DNA of 64,000 bases, taken from positions 24,667 to 88,666 of the forward strand of contig JACKLU010000009.1 of the NCBI GenBank assembly GCA_024235735.1, in the 5' to 3' direction. The notes below the pieces were generated by a model. The model was not told the DNA's origin. It saw only the letters and a program-made list of their open reading frames with translations, and made no database searches. The translations under genes and the position numbers were made by a program. Below are positions 1 through 23,954 of this stretch, in pieces (the first letter of the stretch is position 1; each line of letters starts with the position of its first letter). Source of the DNA: Burkholderiales bacterium (lineage in GTDB: Bacteria; Pseudomonadota; Gammaproteobacteria; Burkholderiales; Nitrosomonadaceae).

Positions 1-924
1 CAGCAGCGGTAACAGGAAAACATAGCCAATAACCGATATGGCGCCGGACAGAAGGCCGATTCCAAATGCGCCCGTCGGTGAAACGACATCGCATACCGAT
101 CCTATGCCGACACCGCCGGCCAGAGCGGCATTCGCCATATCCACCATCGATGTCTTGCCGCCATTCAGTTTGTAACTCAAAAAATAGGTCGCAATCGTTG
201 CACCAGACAGCGCCAGCAAAGTATTGGCAATCACTTGCGGCATGTCCTCAAGCGGCGATAGCGCTGTGGCGAAGCTTGGCCAGAAAAGCCACAGCACCAT
301 AGAGCCCAGCATCGCGAAACGATCCGATGTGGGATCCGATTCGATCGGTTTGCTGCGTTGATACTGTGTGGTCAGTACGATGGACATCGCCAGGCCGAAA
401 TAGGCGCCAAACGCATGAATGACGATCGATCCGGCCGTATCCTGGAAACCGTCGGTCAAACCGAGAGCATTATCCAGTACGATCCATTCATTGAGCAGAT
501 AAAGCGGCACCAATAAAAGCGCCAGCAGCGCATACTGAAATACGCGTAGCCGCCCAAGCACGGCGCCCATGGCGATTAAGGCGGCGGCCACTGACAGTTC
601 GGCAAATAAAATGGCATCGAGGGTATGCGGTGACAGTGCATGTCCGAAAATGCCGTTGGCGCGCAATAAAACATAGAGCGGCAATCCGGTTGCAACAACG
701 AGATAGGTGCCCGTCACCGCGCCAAAACCATAGCGGCGGACAAAAACCATCAAAAAGCCGAAACCGACCAGCAGCATGGCGAGAATATGAATGATGTAAT
801 TGTATTGCGCGACAGTGCGCGCCTCACTCATAACCGCTATCTCTTCAGCGCTGGCCCAGCAACTGAAGCTCAGCAAAAATAAACCCGCTGCACCCAGCAG
901 CATCAAGCTATGGCATTTTTTCAT
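1..924 (-). CDS. Rh50-type ammonia/ammonium (possibly CO2) channel, Amt/Rh family; 3' part runs off the left window edge
   Basis: Manual translation from ATG at 924 (absent from the ORF track because there is no stop in the window): MKKCHSLMLL...AQYNYIIHILAMLLVGFGFLMVFVRRYGF...IHAFGAYFGL...SDRFAMLGSMVLWLFWPSF...DMANAALAGGVGIGS. This closely resembles N. europaea Rh50 as recalled. Confidence 0.92.
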   Translation of the reverse strand, partial: MKKCHSLMLLGAAGLFLLSFSCWASAEEIAVMSEARTVAQYNYIIHILAMLLVGFGFLMVFVRRYGFGAVTGTYLVVATGLPLYVLLRANGIFGHALSPHTLDAILFAELSVAAALIAMGAVLGRLRVFQYALLALLLVPLYLLNEWIVLDNALGLTDGFQDTAGSIVIHAFGAYFGLAMSIVLTTQYQRSKPIESDPTSDRFAMLGSMVLWLFWPSFATALSPLEDMPQVIANTLLALSGATIATYFLSYKLNGGKTSMVDMANAALAGGVGIGSVCDVVSPTGAFGIGLLSGAISVIGYVFLLPLL

Positions 925-1549
925 ATGAATTTCCTTGTATTATCAACCTATAGATGCATCCTATAAGGTATTTCTTGAAAGAAAAATACTATTGCTGTTC
1001 TAACTCAAGCAATTCCTTGCCTGCGCGTCTGCCCTATCTAAGTCATCGTAGCGAGCCAGATGGGAAAAGCGGATACGGATTTTCTCGATTTTGCGGTGCA
1101 TCGCGAGATTAGTAGTAAAGAAGAAGTTTCGCGACGCAAAAATTGAGTAAATATAAACCGTTATCTCATTGGTGCAGTAGATGAGTCTTTAACCCGGCGG
1201 ACGCCTAGAGTCTGAACGCAATTTCCCATTTAAACAATAGGGTTATGCAAATTTGAAGAAAATAATTCTAGAGACATTTGTAGAATACCCACGCCATGGT
1301 TTCTAACGCATTGTTTTTAATATTCTGAAATTTCATAAATGCCACTGGAGCTGGTTCGCGTTGTTTTTCTGTTTGGACGCTACCAGCATCTAGTCAGTCG
1401 CCTGTTTTCGGGAAAATAATCGATTCGGGATTGAAATTTTATTCCTGGTATATCGGTGGCATGCGTGAACTGTTGCTGTAAGGATTTTTGCATGACATTG
1501 TGTGAGATCGGTGTGACGCAGTTGCTGCTGTTTCTTTCTGTCAGACTTT

Positions 1550-2872
1550 TCAATGTTTATGGTTGGTTTTTACTGCGATCGACTTATTGGAATGTGTATT
1601 GAATAATTGATAGAACTTAGGTTCGTTTGCTTGAACCAGCAGTTTGTAAAGATCCTGGTTGGTCAGTCCACGTTCAAGTTGTAGCAGTAAGGCGGCAAGG
1701 CCGGTAACATGAGCGGTGGCCATTGAATTGCCGGAAATGAAGTCGTAAGCGCCGTTGGGGAGCGTAGTAAGGATCTGTTCTCCAGGAGCCGGAACAGTCT
1801 GTGTATGGGTTTTATGGGATGTGCGAAACATGTGAGTGTGGCTTTGCACGCTGATGACACCCGGGTGGTGTGCCGGGAAGCCGGATTGGTTATCTTGCCG
1901 GTCAGTTTGAGAAGCGATGATAATGATGTCTTGTTGAATGGCTTTCTCGATCAGTCTGGCTAGAAGGGGATCGTGGGGTCCGGTTAAGCTTAAATTGATT
2001 AAGTCTACATTCATGTCTATGGCGGTGTTAAGCGCCAATGCCAAAGTAAAGCTGTTGCAGACTGCGTCGAGGCTACCTTCGGATATTTCCCAACAAGCTT
2101 TCATGGCAACGATACGACTGTCAGGCGCCAAGCCCACTATGCCCTGTCCATTGTTTGCTTTGGCGGCAATGATGCCGGCAATTGCCGTGCCATGCCCGTC
2201 ACTGAAAAAATCAACGGATTGATGGGTGACAAAATCCTTGATGACGTTAATCTGACCTTCCAAATCCGGATGTTTTATGTCTACGCCAGTATCAATAATT
2301 GCTATTGTTATATTTTTACCCGTTGCCTGATTGTGTATTTTTCCCAAATTGAACGGATGAATGCTTGATTGCAGCCGGTAATACGGGTCGCTGTATTCTT
2401 TACCCAGGACTTTAAACGTAGACATCAGCTGAACATTATCGATTCGGTTGTCATTGGATAATGCGGTGATGATTTCAGCGATTGACTGGTTTTCATTGAC
2501 CAGATAGACAACACAGTGTTCACCAATTTCACTGATCGACCACTGTGTAAGCAGTGTTAATTTGTAATCCGCCTCGATGTTGGCGGCAATTCTTTCGCTC
2601 CAGGACGAACTACCATAATCGCCCCTTTTGCGATAGGCATGATTAAATTGGCCGATAGGAATGCGATTGATGTGCTTGTCGGAATAGGTGACCAGAATAA
2701 TACGGTCAGTATAGTTGATATCAAATAGCAATGGATCGATTACCAAATCCTGCTTGGCGCTGACTGGCAACACCGAAGCGCCCAGAGTTACAAACAATAA
2801 CGTAATCAATAACAGCAATTTTTTTAAATGGGCTATTAACATAGCAGACTCATTCGGATGAAAGTGAGACAT
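1550..2872 (-). CDS. Secreted subtilisin-like (S8) serine peptidase with N-terminal propeptide
   Basis: Triad motifs IAIIDTG, HGTAIAG and SGNSMA (GTSMA variant); INLSL; hydrophobic signal peptide. The true start may be a few codons downstream. Confidence 0.9.
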   Translation of the reverse strand: MSHFHPNESAMLIAHLKKLLLLITLLFVTLGASVLPVSAKQDLVIDPLLFDINYTDRIILVTYSDKHINRIPIGQFNHAYRKRGDYGSSSWSERIAANIEADYKLTLLTQWSISEIGEHCVVYLVNENQSIAEIITALSNDNRIDNVQLMSTFKVLGKEYSDPYYRLQSSIHPFNLGKIHNQATGKNITIAIIDTGVDIKHPDLEGQINVIKDFVTHQSVDFFSDGHGTAIAGIIAAKANNGQGIVGLAPDSRIVAMKACWEISEGSLDAVCNSFTLALALNTAIDMNVDLINLSLTGPHDPLLARLIEKAIQQDIIIIASQTDRQDNQSGFPAHHPGVISVQSHTHMFRTSHKTHTQTVPAPGEQILTTLPNGAYDFISGNSMATAHVTGLAALLLQLERGLTNQDLYKLLVQANEPKFYQLFNTHSNKSIAVKTNHKH

Positions 2873-3554
2873 GCGCTAGTTCGGCAAAAATGACCTGCGC
2901 ATTGTTACGCAATGCACTAATGGCATCAGTTGTTTCCATAGCATATTTTTGTTCGCCATCTATGAGAATTTCATAAACACCGTTTTTGTATGGTCCATTT
3001 ACGATGTGACCGTAAACACTGCTTACGATAGTGTCGATTTGCGCCTTGTCCGTGTCATCTGTAAAAATCACTCGTATTAAGTTGGGTTTTTTACTTTTCT
3101 GAAGCGGTGCAGACGACTGAGCCAGAGTCCGGTATTCGTTTCCCGATAAGGTTTGTTCATGCATTGCATTGAATATAAATGTCGTTGTCATCAGCAGTAT
3201 GCAAAAAACCAGCGCGAAACTTTTTCTTGAAACTGGGAACTGAAAGAAAAGTTTCTGAAAATTATCGAGCTTTTTGCGAAAAAGCGCTAATTGAGAAACC
3301 GGCTGCGTTTCAATGCGCTTTTTCAGTTGATTAAACGACGCGTTGGACATTTGTTGCATCAGCTCTGCCTGCTGGATATTGTCGTAGACTTGGCGTTGCT
3401 GTTTTAATTCAATTCGGCACGTAATACATGTTTTGATGTGGCTCTCTACCCGTGCTTGTTCCGCAGCGCTCAGCGTTCGGTTGATGAACCAGGGCAAAAG
3501 ACTCCATACCGCACGATGTTCATGATTACTATTGATTTTGCTATTCACTGACAT
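2850..3554 (-). CDS. Membrane-anchored zinc-binding (ZAS/zf-HC2) anti-sigma factor with periplasmic C-terminal domain
   Basis: LLPWFIN...HIKTCITC (HxxxCxxC), a single TM helix, directly downstream of the ECF sigma gene. Confidence 0.85.
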   Translation of the reverse strand: MSVNSKINSNHEHRAVWSLLPWFINRTLSAAEQARVESHIKTCITCRIELKQQRQVYDNIQQAELMQQMSNASFNQLKKRIETQPVSQLALFRKKLDNFQKLFFQFPVSRKSFALVFCILLMTTTFIFNAMHEQTLSGNEYRTLAQSSAPLQKSKKPNLIRVIFTDDTDKAQIDTIVSSVYGHIVNGPYKNGVYEILIDGEQKYAMETTDAISALRNNAQVIFAELAHVSLSSE

Positions 3555-3569
3555 CTTTAGTTCCTGCCC

Positions 3570-4160
3570 TTAGTCTTCCTGAAGTGATTTTGCCAGAATT
3601 CTTCGAGCATGAAACATTCTGGTTTTTACGGTGTTTTCCGGACATTGCATAATTTCGGCGATTTCATTGTAGTGGAGGCCCTGAAAATAAGTCATTTCAA
3701 CGACTGCACGCTGCTCAGCCGACAACTGAGTGAATGCGACTTCCAGCCAGTTACTGGTTTCTACCTGAGAAATCCACTGCGTGCTTTTATCAGGAAAATA
3801 ATCCAGTTCATCATCAAATTCAACAGACCGGTCTTCATCCGCCATTGATTTCTCGACTCTTTTAAGCGCTTTGAAGTAAGCAATACCAAGTATCCAGGTT
3901 GACGGGCGGCATGTCTGGTCATAAGTTGAAGCTTTTTCCCAAACAACATACATGACATCATTAATAATTTCTTCGATATTGTTCCGCGTCCGCGTAATGC
4001 GAAAAATAAATTGAAACAATCGACTAAAATAAAGCTGATACAGTTGTTCGAATGCCTTTTCGTTTCCTGCAGCTGTTTCAGTAATTAACTGCTGCTCTCT
4101 TGCCCGCATCCTGGGTGAGGCATAAATACTTTCTTTATTATTTCCGGGCGATGTGGCCAT
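3570..4160 (-). CDS. ECF-type RNA polymerase sigma factor
   Basis: Region 2 (AFEQLY...EEIINDVMYVVW...STWILGIA) and region 4 (LSAEQRAVVEMTYFQGLHYNEIAEIMQCPENTVKTRMFHARR). Confidence 0.93.
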   Translation of the reverse strand: MATSPGNNKESIYASPRMRAREQQLITETAAGNEKAFEQLYQLYFSRLFQFIFRITRTRNNIEEIINDVMYVVWEKASTYDQTCRPSTWILGIAYFKALKRVEKSMADEDRSVEFDDELDYFPDKSTQWISQVETSNWLEVAFTQLSAEQRAVVEMTYFQGLHYNEIAEIMQCPENTVKTRMFHARRILAKSLQED

Positions 4161-4251
4161 GATTCATTTTTATTGAGACGCTGTCATTTTGGTTGCACAT
4201 ACCCGTTAATTCCAGGGCGTAATATAAATAGTTCAATGCATAGCAAAAAAA

Positions 4252-4989
4252 TTAGATTCCAAAAGTGATCGAGAACAGTATGCGATTACCGACCGCATCA
4301 GGTTCGAATTGCCAATCCAGGGAGGTGATTTGTTCTGAAGCGGCGTGAGCAGAGCCGTAGTAACGTAAATCGATGCCTATATTGGGCGAAAAGTGTATGG
4401 TAAATCCTGAAGCCCAATAGACATAGTCATAATGCAGATTCTTTTTTTGTTTGTTGTAACCCAAAGTACTTGAAAATTCGATGGAATCGGTAATGGGGTA
4501 TCGTCCGGTCATTTCATAACTGAATGACATATGTTTCTGATTATAACCATTTTCAGAAAAAGCGAGGCCCAATGTCAGCAAATCGCGAAAGTGCGTCACG
4601 AAATAAAATTCGTTGTAATCAGCCTGTCTGCCAAAAATGTTTCCATTATAAATATAACGATTCCATTCGAGGTTAAATCGCCAGTCTCTGGCTATTCGAT
4701 ATGCGTAACCAAAGTAAGGCCTAAATTCCAGTTTTGAGCGGTTTCCGAAGTCATGATCGGCAAAGTTAACTGAGGATAAAAAGGATCCTAGATAAAAACC
4801 GGTTTTGAATTCGTAATCAATATTGGCTTGAATGGATGGTTTTTTATCGCTTTTAGTATAGCCACGCCAGAAATAATCAGTTGTTCCCGTCAAGCTTGCA
4901 TTTAATTCGGCATGGCAGATGGCTGTGCTAAAGAGTAGTGGTGCGCAAAATAATAGCAGCTGTGCCAAATTGATGAAGGACATTTTCAT
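4252..4989 (-). CDS. TorF/TIGR02001-like outer-membrane beta-barrel (putative porin)
   Basis: Signal peptide; TTDYFWRGYT...PSIQANIDY...GFYLGS..S.V signature; alternating beta-strand pattern; C-terminal FSITFGI. Confidence 0.8.
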   Translation of the reverse strand: MKMSFINLAQLLLFCAPLLFSTAICHAELNASLTGTTDYFWRGYTKSDKKPSIQANIDYEFKTGFYLGSFLSSVNFADHDFGNRSKLEFRPYFGYAYRIARDWRFNLEWNRYIYNGNIFGRQADYNEFYFVTHFRDLLTLGLAFSENGYNQKHMSFSYEMTGRYPITDSIEFSSTLGYNKQKKNLHYDYVYWASGFTIHFSPNIGIDLRYYGSAHAASEQITSLDWQFEPDAVGNRILFSITFGI

Positions 4990-5482
4990 TTAGCAAAGAC
5001 ATCGAAAGGAAGCTTAAACAACAAGCAGATATGGATAAACACTCTGCCAGTATTGATTCTGAGCAATTACGCGCAAAAAAATGATTTATGAACCATGGAC
5101 TTGGATTTGTGGGTGAAAAATTTTTCATTATAGAACAGAAATTAAATAACTTAAATGTACTTCGATACAGTACTTCGATACAAATAATGAAAAACGACAG
5201 AAGTTAATGAGAACTATTATATATTTTGAACCTTTTGGCAGATTAACCGGATATACCGTATGTTAAAGGTACACATGTGTATAGGTACTTGTAATCGAGA
5301 GATGAAATAAATCTTTGAATTTATTGCCTTAACTAATTATTAAGAAAATCAATTATTTCGTTCAGTAATGCACTTATCAAATTATTGTTTGCAAGTTGAA
5401 GTGATTGACAACTTTTCGGTTACAAATTGACTGGGCCGTTTTAGTGCTTTTACCGGTACGGTTTCTAAATAAGAGAAATGAT

Positions 5483-7291
5483 ATGAAAAAATTATTAATC
5501 ATGATTGTTTTGATGGTTCTTCCGGGGTTTGTCTGGGCTAAAGGGGGCGATCGGCGGATCACTTTTGAATTAAACGACGGACCGGGTAACTGGTATAGAA
5601 ATGCAAATGGCCCGGTAGCCGGATTGGGTTCGCTTGCCGTAGGTACGCCGGGTGTTGAAGTTGTTTTCACAAGAGACGACTCCAATACCGTGCATACTTA
5701 TACCAGCCTGCTTTATCCGACTGGTGCTAGAAATATGCCTTTTGATACCGATCCCCAAAAAGGCAGTGAAAGTATCACGTTAAGGACGCCTGGCTTGTAT
5801 GTCTTTTTCTGTCAGGTGCATCCCTACATGCTCGGCGCAGTGATCGTGGATGATCCGAATACCAAAGGTCTCGACCTCGGTGAAACGATTACGTTGATTA
5901 ATGGCATTACCGTGCCTACCAGCAGCGATCTGGCAACACGCCTGCTGCGTGGTTTTATGGTATTGACCGAGCCGGGTAACTGGCAAAATTTCTCCTCTTC
6001 CGATCCATGGCATATTAATTATCCAAGTGTTCCTGTACGCATTACGGGGGGCGCAGTGATTGATCTCGCTAGCGTGCTAGAAGCCCGCTATGGCAACGAT
6101 ACTGCATTGCCATCGCTGCTGACTCCTCCACCGGGTGTAGGCGAAGTCTGGGTAAACACGCAATTTGAGAAAACTGCCAACAAACGCAAGCCGGGAGCGG
6201 CTGCTGTAGTTGATGCAACAACCTGGCAAGTAAAACGCAAGGTTTTCTTGCCGGATATCGAGATGAACAATCCGCACAATATGTGGACCGACCGCGATCA
6301 AAACCTCATTTATGTCACGGAATGGTTTGACAGCAAACTGACGATATTTGACCGAGTGTCCGGGCAGCTTATTGACCGGCTTCAGGTTGGAGAAGCACCG
6401 GCGCATGTCATGACGCGTGTAGATACCGATCAACTGCATGTTTCTATCAACGGTTCAGACGGGAATGAATCGGTCGTCGAGTTGTCACCGCTTGCTGGCG
6501 GCATTGAACGACGCATTGACGTCGGTCGGCCTGGTCCGCATGCGCATTGGATGGGACATGATGGCGGCACTATGGTAACCCCTAACGTATTTACCGGAGA
6601 CTCAACCATTTATGACTTCGTGCGAGATGGTATTCAGGATATCGTTCCAACCGGTAGCGATGAAGCGCATCCTATCGCAACGGGGATGATGCCCGATTCC
6701 AGTAAATATTACGTTGCCAACTTTCTGGATAGTACATTCACCGTTATTGAAACCGCAACAGGAAAGGTTTTAAAAACTATCAACCTGTTACAGAACTATG
6801 ATCCTGTTAGTGGCGCGATAACTGGGCCCGTTGGCGGTTTGCCGATTCAAACCCCGGTCAGTCCGGATGGCATTGCCATGGTAACGGCAAATATTTTGAC
6901 CGATACCATAACTATTGTGGATACCAAAACGGATACGCTGGTAGCTTCACTGTCTTGTGACGCCGGGTGTCATGGTGTGCAATTTGGCGCCAAGAAAGGC
7001 GGCGGCTATTATGCCTATGTCAGCAGTCAATCAGCCAATGTGTTGCAAGTAGTCGATATCGATCCTAACGGTGACGGCAATCCGAATGACGCTAAAGTCG
7101 TCGGCAGAATTTTGCTGACATCGGTTTCAAACACTGCGTCAGATGACAGGATTACGGCGCATGATGGGATGGGGGGTCAGGGGTTGTTGCCTATTCCGGT
7201 GGTATATAACGGCTGGGTGCAGAATCTGCCGAAAAGCTGGAAAGACCAATTAACACCTCAGCAGCGTGATCCATTAAATTCATCAAAATAG
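5483..7291 (+). CDS. Secreted protein: N-terminal type-1 copper cupredoxin domain plus YVTN/YncE-like beta-propeller
   Basis: ATG at 5483 after AAGAGA, signal peptide MKKLLIMIVLMVLPGFVWA. T1 Cu ligands VHT...CQVHPYM. Propeller repeats (YVANFLDSTFTVIE, VTANILTDTITIVD) with His at blade starts. Confidence 0.82.
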   Translation: MKKLLIMIVLMVLPGFVWAKGGDRRITFELNDGPGNWYRNANGPVAGLGSLAVGTPGVEVVFTRDDSNTVHTYTSLLYPTGARNMPFDTDPQKGSESITLRTPGLYVFFCQVHPYMLGAVIVDDPNTKGLDLGETITLINGITVPTSSDLATRLLRGFMVLTEPGNWQNFSSSDPWHINYPSVPVRITGGAVIDLASVLEARYGNDTALPSLLTPPPGVGEVWVNTQFEKTANKRKPGAAAVVDATTWQVKRKVFLPDIEMNNPHNMWTDRDQNLIYVTEWFDSKLTIFDRVSGQLIDRLQVGEAPAHVMTRVDTDQLHVSINGSDGNESVVELSPLAGGIERRIDVGRPGPHAHWMGHDGGTMVTPNVFTGDSTIYDFVRDGIQDIVPTGSDEAHPIATGMMPDSSKYYVANFLDSTFTVIETATGKVLKTINLLQNYDPVSGAITGPVGGLPIQTPVSPDGIAMVTANILTDTITIVDTKTDTLVASLSCDAGCHGVQFGAKKGGGYYAYVSSQSANVLQVVDIDPNGDGNPNDAKVVGRILLTSVSNTASDDRITAHDGMGGQGLLPIPVVYNGWVQNLPKSWKDQLTPQQRDPLNSSK

Positions 7292-7408
7292 TTTTTTGTT
7301 AACCAGTTTTCATCCATGAACATAACTCTATAAATTAATTGTGATAATTCATGAAAATAGATGAGAATTCCAGTGGAAAGGTATGCAATTGTAGCCAAGA
7401 CAGTGATT

Positions 7409-7452
7409 GGTTCATCCGGCAAGTGCGTACTTGCCGGATGAACCGATTTTTT
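7409..7452 (+). terminator. Rho-independent terminator-like hairpin downstream of the cupredoxin gene
   Basis: Perfect 16-bp stem GGTTCATCCGGCAAGT-gcgt-ACTTGCCGGATGAACC followed by GATTTTTT. Confidence 0.7.
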
Positions 7453-7508
7453 GTTGAGATACTGGCGATGGACATCGGAGGAACTGGCCTTTCATTTGAT
7501 GGATTAGT

Positions 7509-7804
7509 CACTGCTGTCCCGCTAATTTTCCTATCAAAACAAAGTTGGTTGGTTATCATATTCGTATTGACTAGTAGGTGGATCGCCTCGCAGCAGTGTC
7601 ATGAGATCACGTTTTTCAAACAGATTGAGCTGCAATAACCGTATTATCTGCTGCATGCTGATCTGAATCGTTGACTGGAATTTGATGAACGCGATCAGTA
7701 AATAGACGCACAATGCGATCCAGATTTGCGTCATGACGGCATTTTTGCTGGTTCCGACAAATGATTTGATTTTAAGGTTCTGTTTGATCCATTTGAAGAA
7801 CATA
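7509..7804 (-). mobile_element. IS4-family transposase 3' remnant with its terminal inverted repeat
   Basis: FFKWIKQNLKIKSFVGTSKNAVMTQIWIALCVYLL is typical of an IS4 C-terminus. End sequence TTAGCGGGACAGCAGTG finishes at 7509. The 5' part is missing. Confidence 0.8.
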
Positions 7805-8563
7805 TCGAAGAAACCGAACAGCGCATCGCACGATTCGACCAGCATTTGCTCACTGGATTGGAAAGCGAACGCAACTGGCTGGTGTTATTACAAACCTTAC
7901 TCGGCATTGATCTCATCGGTGCAGCCATGTTATTAGTAGAAATTGGCAACGATATGGATGCCTTTGGCAGCGCGGATCGTCTGGCTTCCTGGGTCGGCAT
8001 CTGCCCAATAACGAATCGGCAGGCAAACATAAATCCGGATGAACACGAAAAGGCGACAGGTATGTCCGTCGTCTTCTGTGTGAGTTTGTTCATGCCGCCA
8101 GCCGAGCCACTTCTGCATTCAAGGCAAAGTTCCAGTCACTCATCGTGCGGCGTGGGTACAAACGATCCATCATCGCACTACTGGGATACAAAATACTGCG
8201 TACCATTTTCTTCGAGACCTTTGCACGGCTACTGCGCGGCACGATAATCGCGTTAAAAATTTGCGAAAAATGCTCATTTACCCCGTGTAAACTCCGCTTT
8301 TTCGCAAATTTTTGCCTTATTCTCGCACCGCTCATGACACCGTGCAAAGGTCTCTCTTCATGTTCAAGCGGCGCGAATATTACCGGGACAGCGCCACTGA
8401 CTACGAGAAGATTTCTGTTCAGCGTAATGCCGCACGCTGGATAAAGACGCTGATTCGGCACGGTTTAATCAAACCAGCCCAAGTCTGATTAAATGCCAAT
8501 TCTAATATGACCTTGACTGGTCAGGATTATACTCGCCTGATTGGCTGTTTCTTTCACGTTAAA
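7805..8563 (+). pseudogene. IS110-family recombinase/transposase C-terminal remnant, frameshifted and interrupted by a MITE
   Basis: LLQTLLGIDLIGAAMLLVEIGNDMDAFGSADRLASWVGICP, then after a frameshift RRLLCEFVHAASR...RRGYKRSIIA, and after the MITE YRDSATDYEKISVQRNAPRWIKTL. The right-end position is approximate. Confidence 0.8.
8214..8354. mobile_element. 141-bp MITE, copy 1
   Basis: 15-bp perfect TIR GAGACCTTTGCACGG/CCGTGCAAAGGTCTC; 5-bp TSD TCTTC (8209-8213, 8355-8359); near-identical copy at 25101-25241. Confidence 0.92.
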
Positions 8564-8796
8564 TTTGCACTTATTTATACGAATCCGCTTGGTGTGTTCT
8601 GGGATGATTCAAAAGAAGGGAAGAACGGAAGATTAAAATGCTGTTAGAACGTTCTCGGATGCGGGCGGGTTGCACTGAGTTAACACTGATTTCAGTACAA
8701 CCCTGTTTTATGAAGATTCAACACTCTTTTTCCAATGATAAAAGGATTTCATTACAAGAAGTTGCAATTAGAGGATTTTTTTCTCGAGAGAAACGA

Positions 8797-8961
8797 TCAG
8801 TAATTTCCGATTATTTCCCGTCGAATATCCTTGTCGTCAAAATAGCTGTCATCATCGGCACATTCCATTTCGTCGATAATTCTCGCCACACGACTATCCT
8901 CGAAAAGATCTTCAACAACACAATCGTCATCAAACTTGTCAAAAGAAAATTCAATTTTCAT
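8797..8961 (-). CDS. 54-aa highly acidic small protein of unknown function
   Basis: AAGGAGG SD before ATG at 8961. MKIEFSFDKFDDDCVVEDLFEDSRVARIIDEMECADDDSYFDDKDIRREIIGNY (19 D/E). A candidate promoter lies upstream. Confidence 0.65.
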   Translation of the reverse strand: MKIEFSFDKFDDDCVVEDLFEDSRVARIIDEMECADDDSYFDDKDIRREIIGNY

Positions 8962-9002
8962 TTTAAACACCTCCTTGATTAAACTGGGCAAATCTATTAG
9001 AC

Positions 9003-17833: not shown

Positions 17834-20497
17834 TCAAGTAACTGAAGTCTTGTTGTTTTCCAGCGAGTGCAGCAGTGCTGGCAGAATAATCAGCACACAG
17901 ACGAGTGTCAATATAACACCCGCCAGCAGCAACAATCCCATGCTTGCCGTACCTTGATGCTGTGAAAAAATCAGGCTGCCGAAACCGGCCATTGTCGTTA
18001 AAGCGCTGTAGAAGATGGCGCGGGCTGTGCTGGTATGTAGCAGATTTTCGTAAGCTTCGCCGGTACTGCGGCCTCTGTGAACCATATGCACACTGCAATC
18101 AATGCCGATGCCAAGGATGAGCGGCAGGGCGATCACATTGGCAAAATTAAAGGGTATGCCGAGTAGAACGGTGCTGGCGCCGGTAAACAAAGCTGCCAGC
18201 AATAATGGAATTAATACCAGCGCCGTTGATTTAACGCTCTTGAGCAGTACCAGAAGTGCGGTAATTACGCCGATCAGCGCCAAAGAGAATGCATGAATAA
18301 ATGCATTCACAACCGCCTCTCCGGCTTCCAGACTGATGACCGGCACACCGGTTGCACCCGGCGTTATTTGCTGTACGGCGCGCACAAAGCGAGTCAGGGC
18401 ATCATTGTCATCAATGTTTTCAGCCGGATAAATTGCGATGCGAAAAATATGATTATCGCTGAGCCAATGCGTTTTGACGGATTCAGGTATGTTTTTCCTG
18501 TCGAAAGGCTCAGCCTGTAAGGCAGTTTGCAGTCGATGGATAGATTCCGGCAGAAGGTGCAGCAGATCATGCGTTACAGCGGATAACAGTTGTACCTGCA
18601 TTTCGTGATCTTGAGTTTGGTCAAGCCGTGTCAGCAGTCTGGACAGCGATGCATGCAGGGCATGCGCCTTATTTATCGCGGCATGTGAGGGCTGCTCATT
18701 GACCAGCCGATCCAAAGCCAGTTGCAGTTCCTGCAAGGCAGTTCGCTGCGCGTTGACATCAATTGCTTTTTGCGCCACTGGCGCAAATGTTATCGGACCG
18801 AGCGTCATCGCCATTTCTTCTATGAGCGCCATTTTTTCGTCCTGATGATCCGGTACCATGTCGAGCAATGTCACCACTTTGTCGACTTCAGGCAAGGCGG
18901 CGAGTTGTTGTACAAGCTGTTCGACGTCAGTCTGGTCGTCTTCCAGCGCGATAATATGCCAAGGCGAATCATCGGCATTTTTCAGCAAGTCACGGAAAGT
19001 CTCTACCGATTCGACGCGCGGATCGTTCAGATTGAGCAAGTTGTAGTCGAAGCGAATGTACGGTAAGGCCAGCAGGGATAGTAAAGCGGCAAAGAGAGTT
19101 AGGGTATAGACTGTTCTGCGCGAGTGCCCAGGCCATTCCAGCATGCGATGAACGGGTTCTATGATGATGAGTGGTTTGATTGTTCGAATTGGAAAATAAC
19201 GCTGTAACGCGGGTGCTACGGTCAGTGTTACCAATAGACTGATGATCATTCCCGAGCCCGAGATTAAACCAAGTTCGGCTACGCCGTCATACGTTGTCGG
19301 CATGAAAGCATAAAACCCGATTGCGGTGGTTATCGCGCAAACCATTAAAGCGCGACCAATATCGCCGCTGGCCTTCGGTAATGTGTCCGTTACTGGCAAA
19401 CCGGTTCGGCGGACTTCTTCATGCCGCAATAAGAAATGGATGGCATAATCCACGCCAAGGCCAATATAAAGCACGGCAAAAGCGATGGATATCAGATTCA
19501 GATGGCCGACTGCAAAAGTGGCAAACGCGGCTGTCAGCAGCAATCCAAGAATAAGGCTGAACAATACGGTCATGATCGCACCAAAGGTACGCAGCGCGAT
19601 CAGCAACACCGCAATGACCAGTACAAGCGCAAGTATGCCGGCATCCTGTGCGCCGCGCATCGCGCTGTGCAGCTCGTCGTAAGCCAGTGCTGCTTCACCG
19701 GTAATACGCAGTTTTACGGATGACTCTGTGGTGATGCCAAGATTGCCGGCGGCTTCGCGGATAGCGTTCATCGGCTGTTCTGCGGCGAATAATTGAGCGT
19801 AATCGAGCTTCGGTCGTGTCAGAATGATTTCCTGATAGCGGTCAGCCTGTTGTTCGCCATCGAGTAATATTTGCCATGACAACGCGCGTGGCGTGTTCGC
19901 AAGTTGTGCATCCAGCGTCGAACTGACGCCGCTGAAAACGGCGCCCAGATCCAGATTTCTCCCGCGGATCATTTCATCGGCCGCTTCTGTCAACACAGAT
20001 GCAAAAGTATCCAAAGCTGGATTTTCCGATAGGCGCGCGATCAGTGGCTGTGCGGCTGCAAGGCGATCGGTGATTTTTTCAAGCTCGGCAATATCCTTGA
20101 AAAGCAGGCCGTTCTGCTCAAAGAAGGCGTCACCGCTCAGATAGTTAGTTTCATAAAAATGCGCGCCATCATTGTGCAGATATTCACTGAGTTGCTTCGC
20201 GGCAGCATGCGCCTGCTCGGGTGTTGGCGCTTCGACAACCAGAAGAAACGCGTCTTCAAACTGCGGAAATGCTTCTTTATAACGCTTGTGGTTGACACGG
20301 AAGGGTACTTCTTCGGATAACATATCTGTCGTGTCGGTATGTATGCCCAGATTATTCGAGGTATATACAACGCTGGCGACAGCAATGATGATGCTTAATA
20401 AAATGATCCAGATTGCTTTTTCATAGGAGAAAGCCGCCCAGCGCGCAAAGAAGCGATAGTCTGCGCCATGTGTAGTGTCCACAAAAATTCCTTTCAA
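17834..20497 (-). CDS. hpnN: Hopanoid-associated RND/MMPL transporter
   Basis: Two MMPL halves (GLGVDYAIH, GIGIDCSVH); adjacent to hpnM/hpnB/hpnH. Confidence 0.85.
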   Translation of the reverse strand: MKGIFVDTTHGADYRFFARWAAFSYEKAIWIILLSIIIAVASVVYTSNNLGIHTDTTDMLSEEVPFRVNHKRYKEAFPQFEDAFLLVVEAPTPEQAHAAAKQLSEYLHNDGAHFYETNYLSGDAFFEQNGLLFKDIAELEKITDRLAAAQPLIARLSENPALDTFASVLTEAADEMIRGRNLDLGAVFSGVSSTLDAQLANTPRALSWQILLDGEQQADRYQEIILTRPKLDYAQLFAAEQPMNAIREAAGNLGITTESSVKLRITGEAALAYDELHSAMRGAQDAGILALVLVIAVLLIALRTFGAIMTVLFSLILGLLLTAAFATFAVGHLNLISIAFAVLYIGLGVDYAIHFLLRHEEVRRTGLPVTDTLPKASGDIGRALMVCAITTAIGFYAFMPTTYDGVAELGLISGSGMIISLLVTLTVAPALQRYFPIRTIKPLIIIEPVHRMLEWPGHSRRTVYTLTLFAALLSLLALPYIRFDYNLLNLNDPRVESVETFRDLLKNADDSPWHIIALEDDQTDVEQLVQQLAALPEVDKVVTLLDMVPDHQDEKMALIEEMAMTLGPITFAPVAQKAIDVNAQRTALQELQLALDRLVNEQPSHAAINKAHALHASLSRLLTRLDQTQDHEMQVQLLSAVTHDLLHLLPESIHRLQTALQAEPFDRKNIPESVKTHWLSDNHIFRIAIYPAENIDDNDALTRFVRAVQQITPGATGVPVISLEAGEAVVNAFIHAFSLALIGVITALLVLLKSVKSTALVLIPLLLAALFTGASTVLLGIPFNFANVIALPLILGIGIDCSVHMVHRGRSTGEAYENLLHTSTARAIFYSALTTMAGFGSLIFSQHQGTASMGLLLLAGVILTLVCVLIILPALLHSLENNKTSVT

Positions 20498-20554
20498 GCG
20501 ATAAAAGAGCAGAAACTGAGTATGTAATTTGCTGTTTGGACTGTATTGAGATGC

Positions 20555-21205
20555 TTATTCGGTGTGTTCTGCTTCGGCTATCTTGACTTGCAGCATGTCG
20601 ATGAGTGATTGGAATCCATCGCGTTGCATGATTGACCGGTATTCGCTGCGTTTTATTGCCAGATCACTGACACCATCAAACAGGATGTTAATGATCATCC
20701 ATTTTCCATCGGTATGGTGCAGTACATAATCAAAATTAACGATATCGCCATTATTTTGTATGAGCTGACTGCGCACCAGTTTTTGTTCGCGCGGCAAATC
20801 GCGCTGCTCGATAAAATTGAATTGCTCGCCGTCATACTGTTTAAACTGTCCGGCATAGGTCACGATGCTGAGTTGGCGGAATGTTTCAATGATTGAATCG
20901 TGCTGTTCCTGATTTAGCGTGTTCCACAGCGTTGCACCAATAATTGTCTTGATGATCAGATCAATATCATGCGTTCGCTTGACTACGGGGGTCAGAAATT
21001 CCACGCGACCGGAGAAGCCCAGTTGCGCGCCATTACGCATGGATTGTAATAATGACTGCTGAAGATCATATACTGCTGCGTAAGCACTATCCGGCTCTGG
21101 TTCTTGCGCGTTCGCGATTTTAATGACCGAAATGAATGGCAGAAGAATAATGCTGATCAGAATCAACATCCACGGTAATTGTTTAATGATCTGTTTTGCT
21201 TTCAT
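20555..21205 (-). CDS. hpnM: HpnM / MlaC (Ttg2)-family periplasmic lipid-binding protein
   Basis: VNFDYVLH...WMIINILFDGVSDLAIKRSEYRSI. The start position is uncertain. Confidence 0.8.
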   Translation of the reverse strand: MKAKQIIKQLPWMLILISIILLPFISVIKIANAQEPEPDSAYAAVYDLQQSLLQSMRNGAQLGFSGRVEFLTPVVKRTHDIDLIIKTIIGATLWNTLNQEQHDSIIETFRQLSIVTYAGQFKQYDGEQFNFIEQRDLPREQKLVRSQLIQNNGDIVNFDYVLHHTDGKWMIINILFDGVSDLAIKRSEYRSIMQRDGFQSLIDMLQVKIAEAEHTE

Positions 21206-22325
21206 AGTGACGATCTTTCCAGCGCGCACGCTCTCCCCGCCAGTAGCGTATTGCAGACGTCCATGTCATGGCAAGATACAGTGCGCCAGTAAAAGGGAGT
21301 GCAAAAGTCCATAAGGGGGAACGGCGGTAATATTTTAAGGTTGGTTTGTAGGCATAAAACATTGCTGCACAGGCAATCAGACTGATCATATAAGTTTTCG
21401 GATCAGGCGGCAATAAGAACGCAAAAGGTGCAAGCCAGAACATCGAGAGCATGATAACCGTGCACAATAGTAATAAAAACAGTGAGTAATTGAGTTGGGT
21501 ATAAGCTGTACGCGCAACCATTTCCCAAATTGGTTCGAGTCCTTGATAACCGCGATGGCTGCGCGCGGCATGACTCAGTCCCAACCAGATATTCTTGCCG
21601 GAATGTTTGATGCGCGCGGCCAGCGTGCAATCGTCAATGAGTGCATCATGCAGACTGCTGAAGGCACTGACAGAGCGCAACGCCTGGGTTTCGACCAGTA
21701 TGCATCCTCCTGCGGCAGCGGCCATTCGTGAATCCGGTTTGTTGGTCAGACCAAAGGGATAAAGCAGTTTGAAAAAAAAGATAAATGCGGGCATTAACAT
21801 GCGTTCAACAAGGGTATCCATCGGTGGCATCGCCATTAGCGATACCATTGAACGGTTTTCAGTTAACACCTTATTTTTTAGTGTTGGGATAATGCCTTGT
21901 GATAATGTGATATCCGCATCGAGCAGCAGTGTATAGGGCGTAGTGACATGTTTCAAACCTTGCTCGAGCGCCCAGAGTTTGCCGCTCCATCCCGTCGGCG
22001 GCGTGGTTCCTGCTATCACCTGTGCGCCTTTTAGGCGGGCAAGTTGTGCGGTTTCATCGGTTGATTGATCATCGATTACGATAACTTGTAAGCCTTCGCC
22101 TTGTAGCTTTAAACCGTCGAGTGTGTGTTGAATATAAGATGCTTCATTACGTGCCGGAATTAGCACCGTGACGTCGTTTAAATTTTGGTTAAGCTGATGC
22201 CCAAAATCGGGTTCAATCTGTTCTCGCGTGCTGATCGGTTGCCACGGAAGTAACAGAAGGGACAGCCAGCAGACTGTCCCGAAAGCGCCGCCATACATGA
22301 CGCTGTATAGTAACAATTCAGCCAT
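21183..22325 (-). CDS. hpnB: Hopene-associated GT2 glycosyltransferase
   Basis: IPARNEA, DDQSTD, GWSGKLWAL, LDAD, AAAGGCILV, LIDDC, WEMVARTAYTQL. Confidence 0.85.
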   Translation of the reverse strand: MAELLLYSVMYGGAFGTVCWLSLLLLPWQPISTREQIEPDFGHQLNQNLNDVTVLIPARNEASYIQHTLDGLKLQGEGLQVIVIDDQSTDETAQLARLKGAQVIAGTTPPTGWSGKLWALEQGLKHVTTPYTLLLDADITLSQGIIPTLKNKVLTENRSMVSLMAMPPMDTLVERMLMPAFIFFFKLLYPFGLTNKPDSRMAAAAGGCILVETQALRSVSAFSSLHDALIDDCTLAARIKHSGKNIWLGLSHAARSHRGYQGLEPIWEMVARTAYTQLNYSLFLLLLCTVIMLSMFWLAPFAFLLPPDPKTYMISLIACAAMFYAYKPTLKYYRRSPLWTFALPFTGALYLAMTWTSAIRYWRGERARWKDRHYESKTDH

Positions 22326-22382
22326 TACATTTTATGTGGTCCATGCCGATCATCCAGTGATACCGCAGGGAAGTAAGTTCGA

Positions 22383-23507
22383 TTATTTGTTGGTATTAGA
22401 AATGGTAACAGGAATATCAGCGAGTTTATTTGCTTTTTTGCCTTCATTGACCGCCCATTTTGGTATGGGCTCAGCGACCATTTCTCCCGTTGTTTTGGGG
22501 CCTTTCACAGACATCACAAAGGCTTTCCAAGGGTTATGTAACGTATCTTCCACAGCGGTTGCTTCATAGCCGCAGTGCGCCATGCACTGCGCGCATTTAG
22601 GATTGTTGGCGTTGCCGTACTTTTCCCATGGTGTGGTGTCGAGCAATTCCTGAAAAGTTTTGACGTAACCTTCGTCGGACAGCAGGTAACATGGCTTCTG
22701 CCAGCCGAATACATTGCGTGTCGGATTTCCCCATGGTGTGCACTTGTAATCCTGATTACCTGCCAGAAAATCCAGATAAAGCGCAGAATGATTGAGCCGC
22801 CATTTGCGCTTCAGTTTTTTACCCAATTCAAAAATGCCCCGGAATAGCCGTTTGGTATCCGCGCCTTTGATGAAGACATCCTGTCTGGGTGCGTGTTCAT
22901 AGCTGAACCCCGGTGCGATTGTGACACCCTCCACGCCCAATTCGGTTACATAATCCAGAAACTCGGCGACATCCTCTGGTGTTTCTCCTTGAAACAGGGT
23001 GCAGTTAACGGTCACGCGAAAGCCTCTATCCAAGGCTAATTTGATAGCTTCAACCGCGCGCTCAAAAACACCTTCTTGGCATACCGAAGCATCATGGCGC
23101 TCTTTCATACCGTCGAGATGCACCGAGAAAGTCAGATACGGCGAAGGCGAGTAATCACCCATACGCTTCTTGAGCAGCAGCGCGTTTGTGCAAAGATAAA
23201 CATACTTTTTGCGCTTGATGATTCCTTCAACAATGCGCGGCATGTCTTTATGCAGCAGCGGTTCTCCGCCGGGGATTGAAACCATGGGAGCGCCGCATTC
23301 ATCGACTGCCTGCATGCATTCTTCATATGAAAGGCGCTTGTCCAGAATTTCTTCGGGATGTGCAATTTTTCCGCAGCCGGCGCATGCCAGATTGCAGCGA
23401 AACAACGGCTCCAGCATCAGTACTAAAGGGTATTTTTTAACACCTTTAATTTTTTGTTTGATCAGATAGCTACCAACGGCAATCTGTTGGCGTAATGGAA
23501 CTCCCAT
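22383..23507 (-). CDS. hpnH: Adenosylhopane synthase, radical SAM
   Basis: LMLEPLFRCNLACAGCGK, C-terminal CAQCMAHCGYE; GGAGG SD before ATG at 23507. Confidence 0.93.
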   Translation of the reverse strand: MGVPLRQQIAVGSYLIKQKIKGVKKYPLVLMLEPLFRCNLACAGCGKIAHPEEILDKRLSYEECMQAVDECGAPMVSIPGGEPLLHKDMPRIVEGIIKRKKYVYLCTNALLLKKRMGDYSPSPYLTFSVHLDGMKERHDASVCQEGVFERAVEAIKLALDRGFRVTVNCTLFQGETPEDVAEFLDYVTELGVEGVTIAPGFSYEHAPRQDVFIKGADTKRLFRGIFELGKKLKRKWRLNHSALYLDFLAGNQDYKCTPWGNPTRNVFGWQKPCYLLSDEGYVKTFQELLDTTPWEKYGNANNPKCAQCMAHCGYEATAVEDTLHNPWKAFVMSVKGPKTTGEMVAEPIPKWAVNEGKKANKLADIPVTISNTNK

Positions 23508-23954
23508 GGTTAAAACCTCCAAAATACTTCATTAAACGACGAATTGATTTTTTTGTTCAGAGTTGATGGCGTGTAGCGAGTTGCAGCCAGAGTCAAAATT
23601 ATATTCAATTCGTTAAAACTGTTTCGGGTCTGTAAATGCTGAAAGAGTGACGTAGATTTGATCCATTGCTTTTCTTGTTGTGCTTGTGGATTTATTGTGA
23701 AGGCAATGGATCTTGTTTTTTTGCGGTTTCAGTCAGCAATATAATTCATTATACAGTTTATTGACAGTGGTGATATTGATCGGTACCGGATCTCTTTTTC
23801 GTTTTGTATGAAAACAACAGTGTTCGTATTTTTGAAAAAATATGCGGTATGTTTGGCAATATCAGCTGTCTCGGCTTCTGTTGCACGCCAGGAGACACCA
23901 AAAGAAATAATCAGGACTCCTGGCTGAATAAGGTGTTGTACTGATTGGGAATTT

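Follow-up and report, generated by a model that had tools for sequence, protein, structure and literature searches.

In this work we have analysed a stretch of 64,000 nucleotides (hereafter, the window) from contig JACKLU010000009.1 of a Burkholderiales bacterium of the family Nitrosomonadaceae, and in it a putative operon of three genes coding for a sigma factor of the extracytoplasmic function (ECF) type, a membrane-anchored anti-sigma factor and a secreted subtilase of the S8 family. The three open reading frames (ORFs) are tightly packed on the minus strand of positions 1550–4160; coordinates are those of the window, and features lie on the minus strand unless stated otherwise. The sigma factor (196 aa, 4160..3570) comes first, followed after a gap of 15 nt (3555–3569) by the single-pass, class I zinc-type anti-sigma (ZAS) factor (234 aa, 3554..2850) and then by the S8 subtilase pre-pro-enzyme (440 aa, 1550..2872). 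An earlier description of this DNA, the sequence-only reading, had presented the trio as tightly linked; its coordinates, strand and 15-nt gap were confirmed, and all the peptide strings that it quoted were found. It had also reported a 23-nt overlap between the anti-sigma and protease genes, which is correct for the longest S8 ORF; if the S8 protein starts instead at the ATG at 2842, giving 430 aa that begin MLIAHLKKLLLL, a typical signal peptide, there is no overlap and the two genes are 7 nt apart. The genes of the trio are tightly coupled whichever S8 start applies.

The identities assigned to the three products were upheld by Pfam and NCBIfam. In the sigma factor, Pfam places Sigma70_r2 at residues 40–104 and Sigma70_r4_2 at residues 138–187, and also recognizes Sigma70_ECF, while the score against NCBIfam model TIGR02937 was 68.9 bits, with a cut-off of 42.9. 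The protein consists of regions sigma2 and sigma4 only, in about 200 aa, as is characteristic of the ECF (group 4) sigma factors. It scored below the cut-off of every NCBIfam equivalog or subfamily model, the best being PRK12515 (123 bits vs 236), and its nearest solved structures are SigK, proteins of the SigH/AlgU type, RpoE and SigW.

In the anti-sigma factor, a zf-HC2 motif is followed by one hydrophobic helix, and some 75 residues after it form a C-terminal domain (here called the C-domain). Its zf-HC2 match in Pfam has 25.8 bits (cut-off 22.2), and the zinc ligands of the ZAS motif (H13, H39-x3-C43-x2-C46; residues 13–46, 3417..3518) are invariant in 79/79 homologues. When the protein of the window was searched alone against Pfam and NCBIfam, only zf-HC2 and a weak match to DUF7743 were obtained. 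Among the PDB sequences, the profile of the whole family picked out ChrR, RslA and RsiW through their anti-sigma domains, and it matched nothing over its C-domain. The predicted transmembrane helix (residues ~113–132; 3159..3218), read from the sequence as the hydrophobic stretch FALVFCILLMTTTFIFNAMH, is preceded by K/R-rich and followed by acidic sequence. In a profile search, this anti-sigma family comprised about 1,460 protein clusters; the fullest annotations among them are 'zf-HC2 domain-containing protein' and 'anti-sigma factor RsiW', and Pfam assigns no domain to the C-terminal part.

What is this C-terminal part? The sequence-only reading had seen in it the alternating beta/alpha pattern of subtilase propeptides, and had pointed to its likeness to the prodomain of the neighbouring protease. 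The pattern is real in the AlphaFold2 (AF2) model, which was obtained with residues 136–234 and an alignment of 61 sequences and has a mean predicted local distance difference test (pLDDT) value of 78.6, with a core above 90. The strands (b) and helices (a) of the model, b1 (159–164), a1 (170–179), b2 (182–186), b3 (193–198), a2 (208–216) and b4 (221–226), form a b-a-b-b-a-b open sandwich, which is the fold of subtilase prodomains, and they delimit a periplasmic propeptide-like domain at residues 159–226 (2877..3080). In a Foldseek comparison with the PDB, the top matches of the C-domain were 3whi_B, 1spb_P, 1scj_B, 3whi_A and 3cnq_P, all of them subtilisin pro-segments, including those of subtilisin E and BPN', and pro-segments made up 5 of the 6 top fold matches. 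The superposition on 1spb_P has a template modelling (TM) score of 0.72 on the target and a root-mean-square deviation of 2.2 Å over 75 columns; the Tk-subtilisin propeptide and the PC1/3 prodomain rank lower. By its model, the C-domain is a ferredoxin-like open sandwich, a common fold, of which the pro-segments are the nearest solved representatives.

The evidence of sequence for a relationship with propeptides is stronger than that of the fold. When 29 members of the anti-sigma family were scanned singly against Pfam, 13 matched PF22148, the Fervidolysin N-terminal prodomain (Fervidolysin_NPro-like), at lenient E-values (best E=3.5e-5), and no other Pfam family was matched by more than 2 of them. 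Two of these proteins, from loci L035 and L043, reach the gathering score of 21, with 24.5 and 21.0 bits, over profile positions 22–80 of 81. The pro-regions of the S8 proteins match the same family in 8 of 28 homologues, with a best E-value of 1.3e-4, and hhalign aligns the anti-sigma C-domain with the S8 pro-region collinearly from b1 to b4 (P=2e-4 to 3.5e-4, probability 38–46%), which bears out the likeness pointed to in the sequence-only reading. We conclude that the C-domain is a diverged homologue of the fervidolysin-type subtilase prodomain. Within the proteins searched, the domain is found in this anti-sigma architecture almost alone: with the C-domain of the window as query, phmmer gave 51 matches among 1.84 billion representative proteins, nearly all of them C-terminal in proteins of ~220–260 aa, and no S8 prodomain or other architecture was returned, barring two doubtful partial matches in giant proteins.

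In the protease encoded next to it, a signal peptide and an N-terminal pro-region precede the catalytic domain (Peptidase_S8, PF00082, E=2e-38). Residues D194, H227 and S383, which make up the Asp-His-Ser triad, and N293, the Asn of the oxyanion hole, are invariant in 76/76 S8 homologues, and the nearest PDB structures are subtilisins; by these residues the S8 protein should be an active enzyme and not a pseudoprotease. Its best NCBIfam match was to the mycosins of the type VII secretion system, a subfamily that was rejected, with 162.7 bits against TIGR03921 (cut-off 278.75), a Gram-negative host and another gene context. The S8 prodomain (residues 40–160; 2393..2755), assigned from AF2 and from the PF22148 matches of the homologues, also has the b-a-b-b-a-b order in an AF2 model of residues 40–175, in which b1 and a1 are separated by a disordered insert. 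The junction between the pro-region and the mature enzyme is predicted, by analogy with subtilisins, at ...GKEY160|SDPYY, just before a conserved D-P-Y, and the P1 residue of this junction is Tyr or Phe in 48/75 homologues, mainly from Proteobacteria. The signal peptide of the S8 protein in the window is ordinary, unlike those of several lineages other than Nitrosomonas: at loci L033, L038, L048 and L066 the S8 N-terminus carries a lipobox-like signal (e.g. LVSC, LAGC), with no Asp at position +2.

Outside the C-domain, the most conserved periplasmic element of the anti-sigma factor is a juxtamembrane motif, [YF]-x-T-L-[AS]-[ND]-P, present in the window as Y141-R-T-L144 (3123..3134) about 9 residues past the membrane helix. 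Its first position is Tyr or Phe in 79/79 homologues, and the T and L are kept in 76/79 and 73/79; at L052 the motif is deviant, F-S-M-V. In the AF2 model it is not packed against the C-domain (pLDDT ~54). The spacer between the motif and b1 (residues 141–159; 3080–3134) has 15–17 residues in 63/79 homologues and a variable sequence. An invariant aromatic-x-T-L at a fixed spacer length is what would be expected of a docking module that presents a tethered cleavage or recognition site, and we infer from its conservation that [YF]xTL is a candidate site-1 cleavage or protease-recognition site. The suggestion in the sequence-only reading that the anti-sigma factor might serve as bait for the protease gains some support from this invariant motif at a length-constrained distance. 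Subtilisins prefer large hydrophobic or aromatic residues at P1. The agreement in P1 between the S8 junction and the anti-sigma motif, with Tyr in both in Proteobacteria, lends weak support to the same idea and fails in most Acidobacteriota.

We scanned the anti-sigma alignment against one genome per species in GTDB, and 80 loci were obtained. They belong to Nitrosomonas (L001–L032), to Gammaproteobacteria, including Methylococcaceae and Competibacterales, to Rhodocyclaceae and, in large number, to Acidobacteriota (Thermoanaerobaculia, Holophagales). A sigma gene lies directly upstream of the anti-sigma gene in 80/80 loci (tblastn), and in 73/80 the anti-sigma gene is followed directly, on the same strand, by an S8 gene; of the others, 1 has a partial S8 copy, 2 have a divergent S8 gene nearby, 2 are ended by the contig and 2 have no S8 gene in the flank that is available. 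When the ORFs of the 80 loci were clustered, the sigma, anti-sigma and S8 families were found in 78, 79 and 75 loci respectively, and no other gene was universally linked to them. The trio is a conserved unit across several phyla, and since the same order recurs in 73/80 loci from several phyla, the arrangement is not due to chance. This strict synteny also lends indirect support to the idea that the C-domain may bind, inhibit or chaperone a cognate subtilase. The closest homologues come from Nitrosomonas and from metagenome bins of Nitrosomonadaceae, and the DNA of the window itself occurs in activated-sludge and wastewater metagenomes.

The sigma gene is preceded by the ECF-type promoter motif TGAAC-N-GGAATTAAC (4235..4205), which is shared with related loci. 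The pattern upstream of the sigma gene, TGAAC(C/T)-N-GG(A/G)A(T/C)A(A/T)AC, was found in at least 37/78 related loci, in Nitrosomonas, Gammaproteobacteria and Acidobacteriota, and twice in the 64-kb window, where 0.01 occurrences would be expected. Of the form TGAAC-N-GGAAT/GGGAC, it has the look of an autoregulated ECF promoter with a GAAC-type -35 element. The second copy in the window (5227..5256, plus strand) is divergent from the operon. A gene 227 nt downstream of this copy (5483..7291, plus strand; Pfam YNCE) codes for a secreted beta-propeller protein, YncE-like, with a cupredoxin-like N-terminal part and a weak amicyanin match, and is a putative member of the regulon. At other loci, extra copies precede genes for plastocyanin-type Copper-bind fusion proteins (L038, L069, L070), a di-haem CCP/MauG protein (L010), a propeller-cytochrome c lipoprotein (L051) and a DUF5777 barrel (L063); L034 is also among the loci where an extra copy was observed. 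The divergent S8 gene of L062 carries its own copy of the motif, so that the protease gene appears to stay under an ECF-type promoter motif. The local regulon may comprise periplasmic copper and redox proteins together with outer-membrane proteins, in hosts that include ammonia and methane oxidisers.

How could these elements work together? The three genes make up an apparently autoregulated operon, and we tentatively propose, with somewhat less than even confidence, that in it the propeptide-like domain of the anti-sigma factor docks the S8 protease, which removes the periplasmic part of the anti-sigma factor and in this way frees the sigma factor. In this scheme the C-domain would be the docking module, or exosite, to which the periplasmic S8 protein of the same operon is recruited, and the active enzyme would degrade or clip the anti-sigma factor on its periplasmic side. 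Cleavage would be likeliest at or near [YF]-x-T-L, with the bond after Y141 as the candidate, about 9 residues outside the membrane and 15–17 before the domain. The remaining stub of about 9 residues could be handed over to a general RseP-type site-2 protease and to cytoplasmic proteases. The freed sigma factor would transcribe its own operon, including the protease gene, and the loop would be a positive-feedback switch damped by newly made anti-sigma factor. The same sigma factor would also drive genes nearby whose products are secreted redox, copper and outer-membrane proteins.

A different arrangement of the same parts, which we judge unlikely, is that the C-domain acts at the inner membrane as a tethered inhibitor or chaperone of the mature or folding S8 protein; the sigma factor would be released by another signal and another protease, and the destruction of the anti-sigma factor would then unleash the S8 enzyme. 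Prodomains, to which the C-domain is homologous, have known roles as foldases and as temporary inhibitors, and synthesis from one operon would provide matched amounts of the two proteins. The acidic residue of b4, E225, is near-invariant (67/79 homologues), in agreement with such a role, and may be comparable to the acidic residues with which the pro-segment of subtilisin BPN' caps helices. In real pro-segments, however, the tail that follows b4 fills the active-site cleft, while in the anti-sigma factors it has from 1 to 19 residues and no conserved sequence. Because this tail varies in length and sequence, and because each S8 protein keeps a prodomain of its own, a canonical trans-propeptide plug, the other half of the suggestion made from the sequence, is less likely. 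With a prodomain in every S8 protein, a second foldase is not obviously needed. An inhibitor would also leave the invariant [YF]xTL and its constant spacer unexplained, and it is these two features that the docking proposal accommodates.

Alternatively, the S8 protein could be a mere output of the sigma factor, or a negative-feedback element like MucD, in which case the C-domain would sense something else, be it a metal, a small ligand or a protein, and the anti-sigma factor would be cut by a site-1 protease of a conventional kind. A periplasmic protease is the last gene of the ECF operons algU-mucA-mucB-mucC-mucD of Pseudomonas and rpoE-rseA-mucD of Xanthomonas, which have the same order of sigma factor, anti-sigma factor and periplasmic serine protease in one autoregulated operon. 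MucD, which is of the HtrA/DegP type (S1C), acts indirectly by removing the inducing signals, and MucA has no propeptide-like domain. The fold of the C-domain is also that of ACT and other ligand-binding domains, and a metal or redox signal is conceivable given that the putative regulon encodes copper and haem proteins. Against this, no cluster of Cys, His or Met residues that could bind metal is conserved in the C-domain among the homologues, and the domain matches the same prodomain Pfam family as the prodomain of the neighbouring protease. In addition, it is almost confined to this architecture beside this protease, a restriction that would be difficult to account for if the two were not directly related, so we consider this alternative to have only a small chance of being right. 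That the likeness to propeptides is convergent, or a chance trait of a generic ferredoxin-like fold, with the linkage reflecting co-regulation only, is very improbable: the Foldseek E-values are marginal, many RRM, ACT and S6 folds come close in score and the hhalign probability is just 38–46%, but independent HMMER matches to one prodomain family (two of them at or above its threshold), the predominance of pro-segments at the top of the fold search and the strict synteny across phyla all argue for a true relationship.

Several observations weigh against the docking proposal itself. RRM, ACT, S6 and EF-1beta folds are interspersed among the Foldseek matches of the C-domain (E 3e-3 to 1e-1), and the fold search alone discriminates poorly within ferredoxin-like folds. 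The model of the S8 pro-region retrieved ACT and IlvN-type domains in Foldseek, and no pro-segments; it is because of this result that the Pfam evidence was weighted above the fold search. The anti-sigma factor of the window itself matches no Pfam propeptide model, and it is the homologues that provide the link with PF22148. Tyr is often missing from the S8 junction in Acidobacteriota, while their anti-sigma motif keeps it. At L052 and L071 the anti-sigma gene has no S8 gene in the available downstream flank (1.8 and 4.4 kb). The lipobox-like signals suggest that in the lineages that carry them the S8 protein may be a lipoprotein sorted to the outer membrane, from where it would be sterically awkward to reach a site that lies about 9 residues off the inner membrane. 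Finally, it is unusual for a site-1 protease to be co-encoded and co-induced with its own substrate.

The scheme has parallels in well-studied systems. In the sigmaE-RseA system of Escherichia coli, where DegS cuts at site 1 and RseP at site 2, and in the sigmaW-RsiW system of Bacillus subtilis, where PrsW is the protease, an ECF sigma factor is likewise held by a single-pass anti-sigma factor, and stepwise proteolysis from the periplasmic side is the logic expected here. RsiW also has a class I anti-sigma domain of the zinc type, as does the anti-sigma factor of the window. The putative site-1 enzyme differs, being an S8 subtilase encoded within the operon instead of DegS (S1C) or PrsW, and the periplasmic regions of RseA and RsiW are presumably unlike the protease-prodomain homologue that the anti-sigma factor of the window carries. 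With the subtilase pro-segments (MEROPS I9; Inhibitor_I9, PF22148) and the stand-alone I9 inhibitors (PBI2 of yeast, POIA1 of Pleurotus) the C-domain shares the b-a-b-b-a-b order and the conserved acidic residue of b4. Unlike the pro-segments, it is located at the C-terminus of a membrane-anchored anti-sigma factor and not at the N-terminus of a protease, and with an unconserved tail its action as an active-site plug is doubtful. In the eukaryotic SREBP pathway, a subtilase, site-1 protease (S1P, SKI-1), acts before site-2 protease (S2P). If the docking proposal is right, a subtilase would here too make the first cut, on the luminal or periplasmic side, after which an intramembrane protease of the S2P family can release a transcription regulator; the resemblance is one of mechanism only, and hypothetical, and the substrates are not homologous.

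Among bacterial sigma factors, ECF54 of Actinobacteria is also linked to a subtilase gene: a review describes subtilase, carboxypeptidase and CHAT genes nearby, no anti-sigma factor and a protease proposed to act on the sigma factor (PMC8999054). In the system of the window, by comparison, the anti-sigma factor is present, is a canonical one of the ZAS type and has a propeptide-like domain dedicated to it, and the hosts belong to Gram-negative phyla. In the literature consulted, which for the reclassification of the ECF sigma factors comprises the main text of the paper, we found no account of an S8 protease linked to a ZAS anti-sigma factor whose ectodomain resembles a propeptide; the ECF group of this sigma factor may already have a number, with Peptidase_S8 given in its gene context.

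The operon is surrounded by ordinary chromosomal genes (about 13 larger ORFs of the window were scanned against Pfam). Directly upstream of the sigma gene there is an accessory gene for a putative porin of the TorF/Gcw_chp family (4252..4989; NCBIfam TIGR02001, E=8e-29), and a TorF-family porin precedes the operon, as in the window, in 42/80 loci, from Nitrosomonas and some Gammaproteobacteria. Contigs assembled from RNA runs indicate low-level expression and span both the junction between the sigma and anti-sigma genes and the gap between the porin and sigma genes, and there may be read-through from the porin gene into the operon; such contigs can contain DNA and are weak evidence, and at the junction between the anti-sigma and S8 genes their depth is too low. 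Rfam gave nothing in positions 1–9000 of the window, and scans for sigma-70 promoters and terminators remained at background level. On the other side, positions 1–924 hold the 5' part of a gene for an Rh/Amt-type ammonium transporter (PF00909, E=6e-41), which runs off the start of the window, and the 625 nt between this gene and the S8 stop codon are free of Rfam matches and of ORFs that reach 60 aa. Beside the beta-propeller gene, positions 7300–8500 consist of short overlapping ORFs, including a fragment of an IS110-family transposase (7846–8247, PF02371), and look like insertion-sequence debris. Further away (17834–23522), genes for an MMPL transporter, a family-2 glycosyltransferase and a radical-SAM/DUF3463 protein follow each other on the minus strand, and we assume that they resemble the hopanoid biosynthesis and transport genes hpnN, hpnI and hpnH.

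To our knowledge, neither the signal nor the protease that cuts at site 1 has been identified for most ECF sigma factors. Here the sequence points to both partners, a protease encoded in the operon and a copy of a protease prodomain on the anti-sigma factor, and this offers a testable hypothesis for more than 1,000 uncharacterised 'zf-HC2 domain-containing proteins'. In its most far-reaching form, which we regard as possible though rather doubtful, the trio would be a widespread module of at least three phyla and a bacterial counterpart of the S1P/S2P pathway; the S8 protein would be a dedicated, operon-encoded site-1 protease recruited by a propeptide mimic, to which the fixed spacer would present [YF]xTL as the scissile motif, and the module may regulate copper and redox proteins of the periplasm in bacteria that oxidise ammonia or methane. 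If this were true, subtilases would join the known classes of bacterial site-1 proteases, the I9-type fold would acquire a new use as a docking module borne by the substrate, and the trio would provide a compact and possibly orthogonal protease-gated transcription switch. The putative regulon, with its plastocyanin-type copper proteins, di-haem peroxidase, beta-propellers and outer-membrane barrels, hints at a role in the periplasmic copper and redox biology of nitrifiers and methanotrophs.

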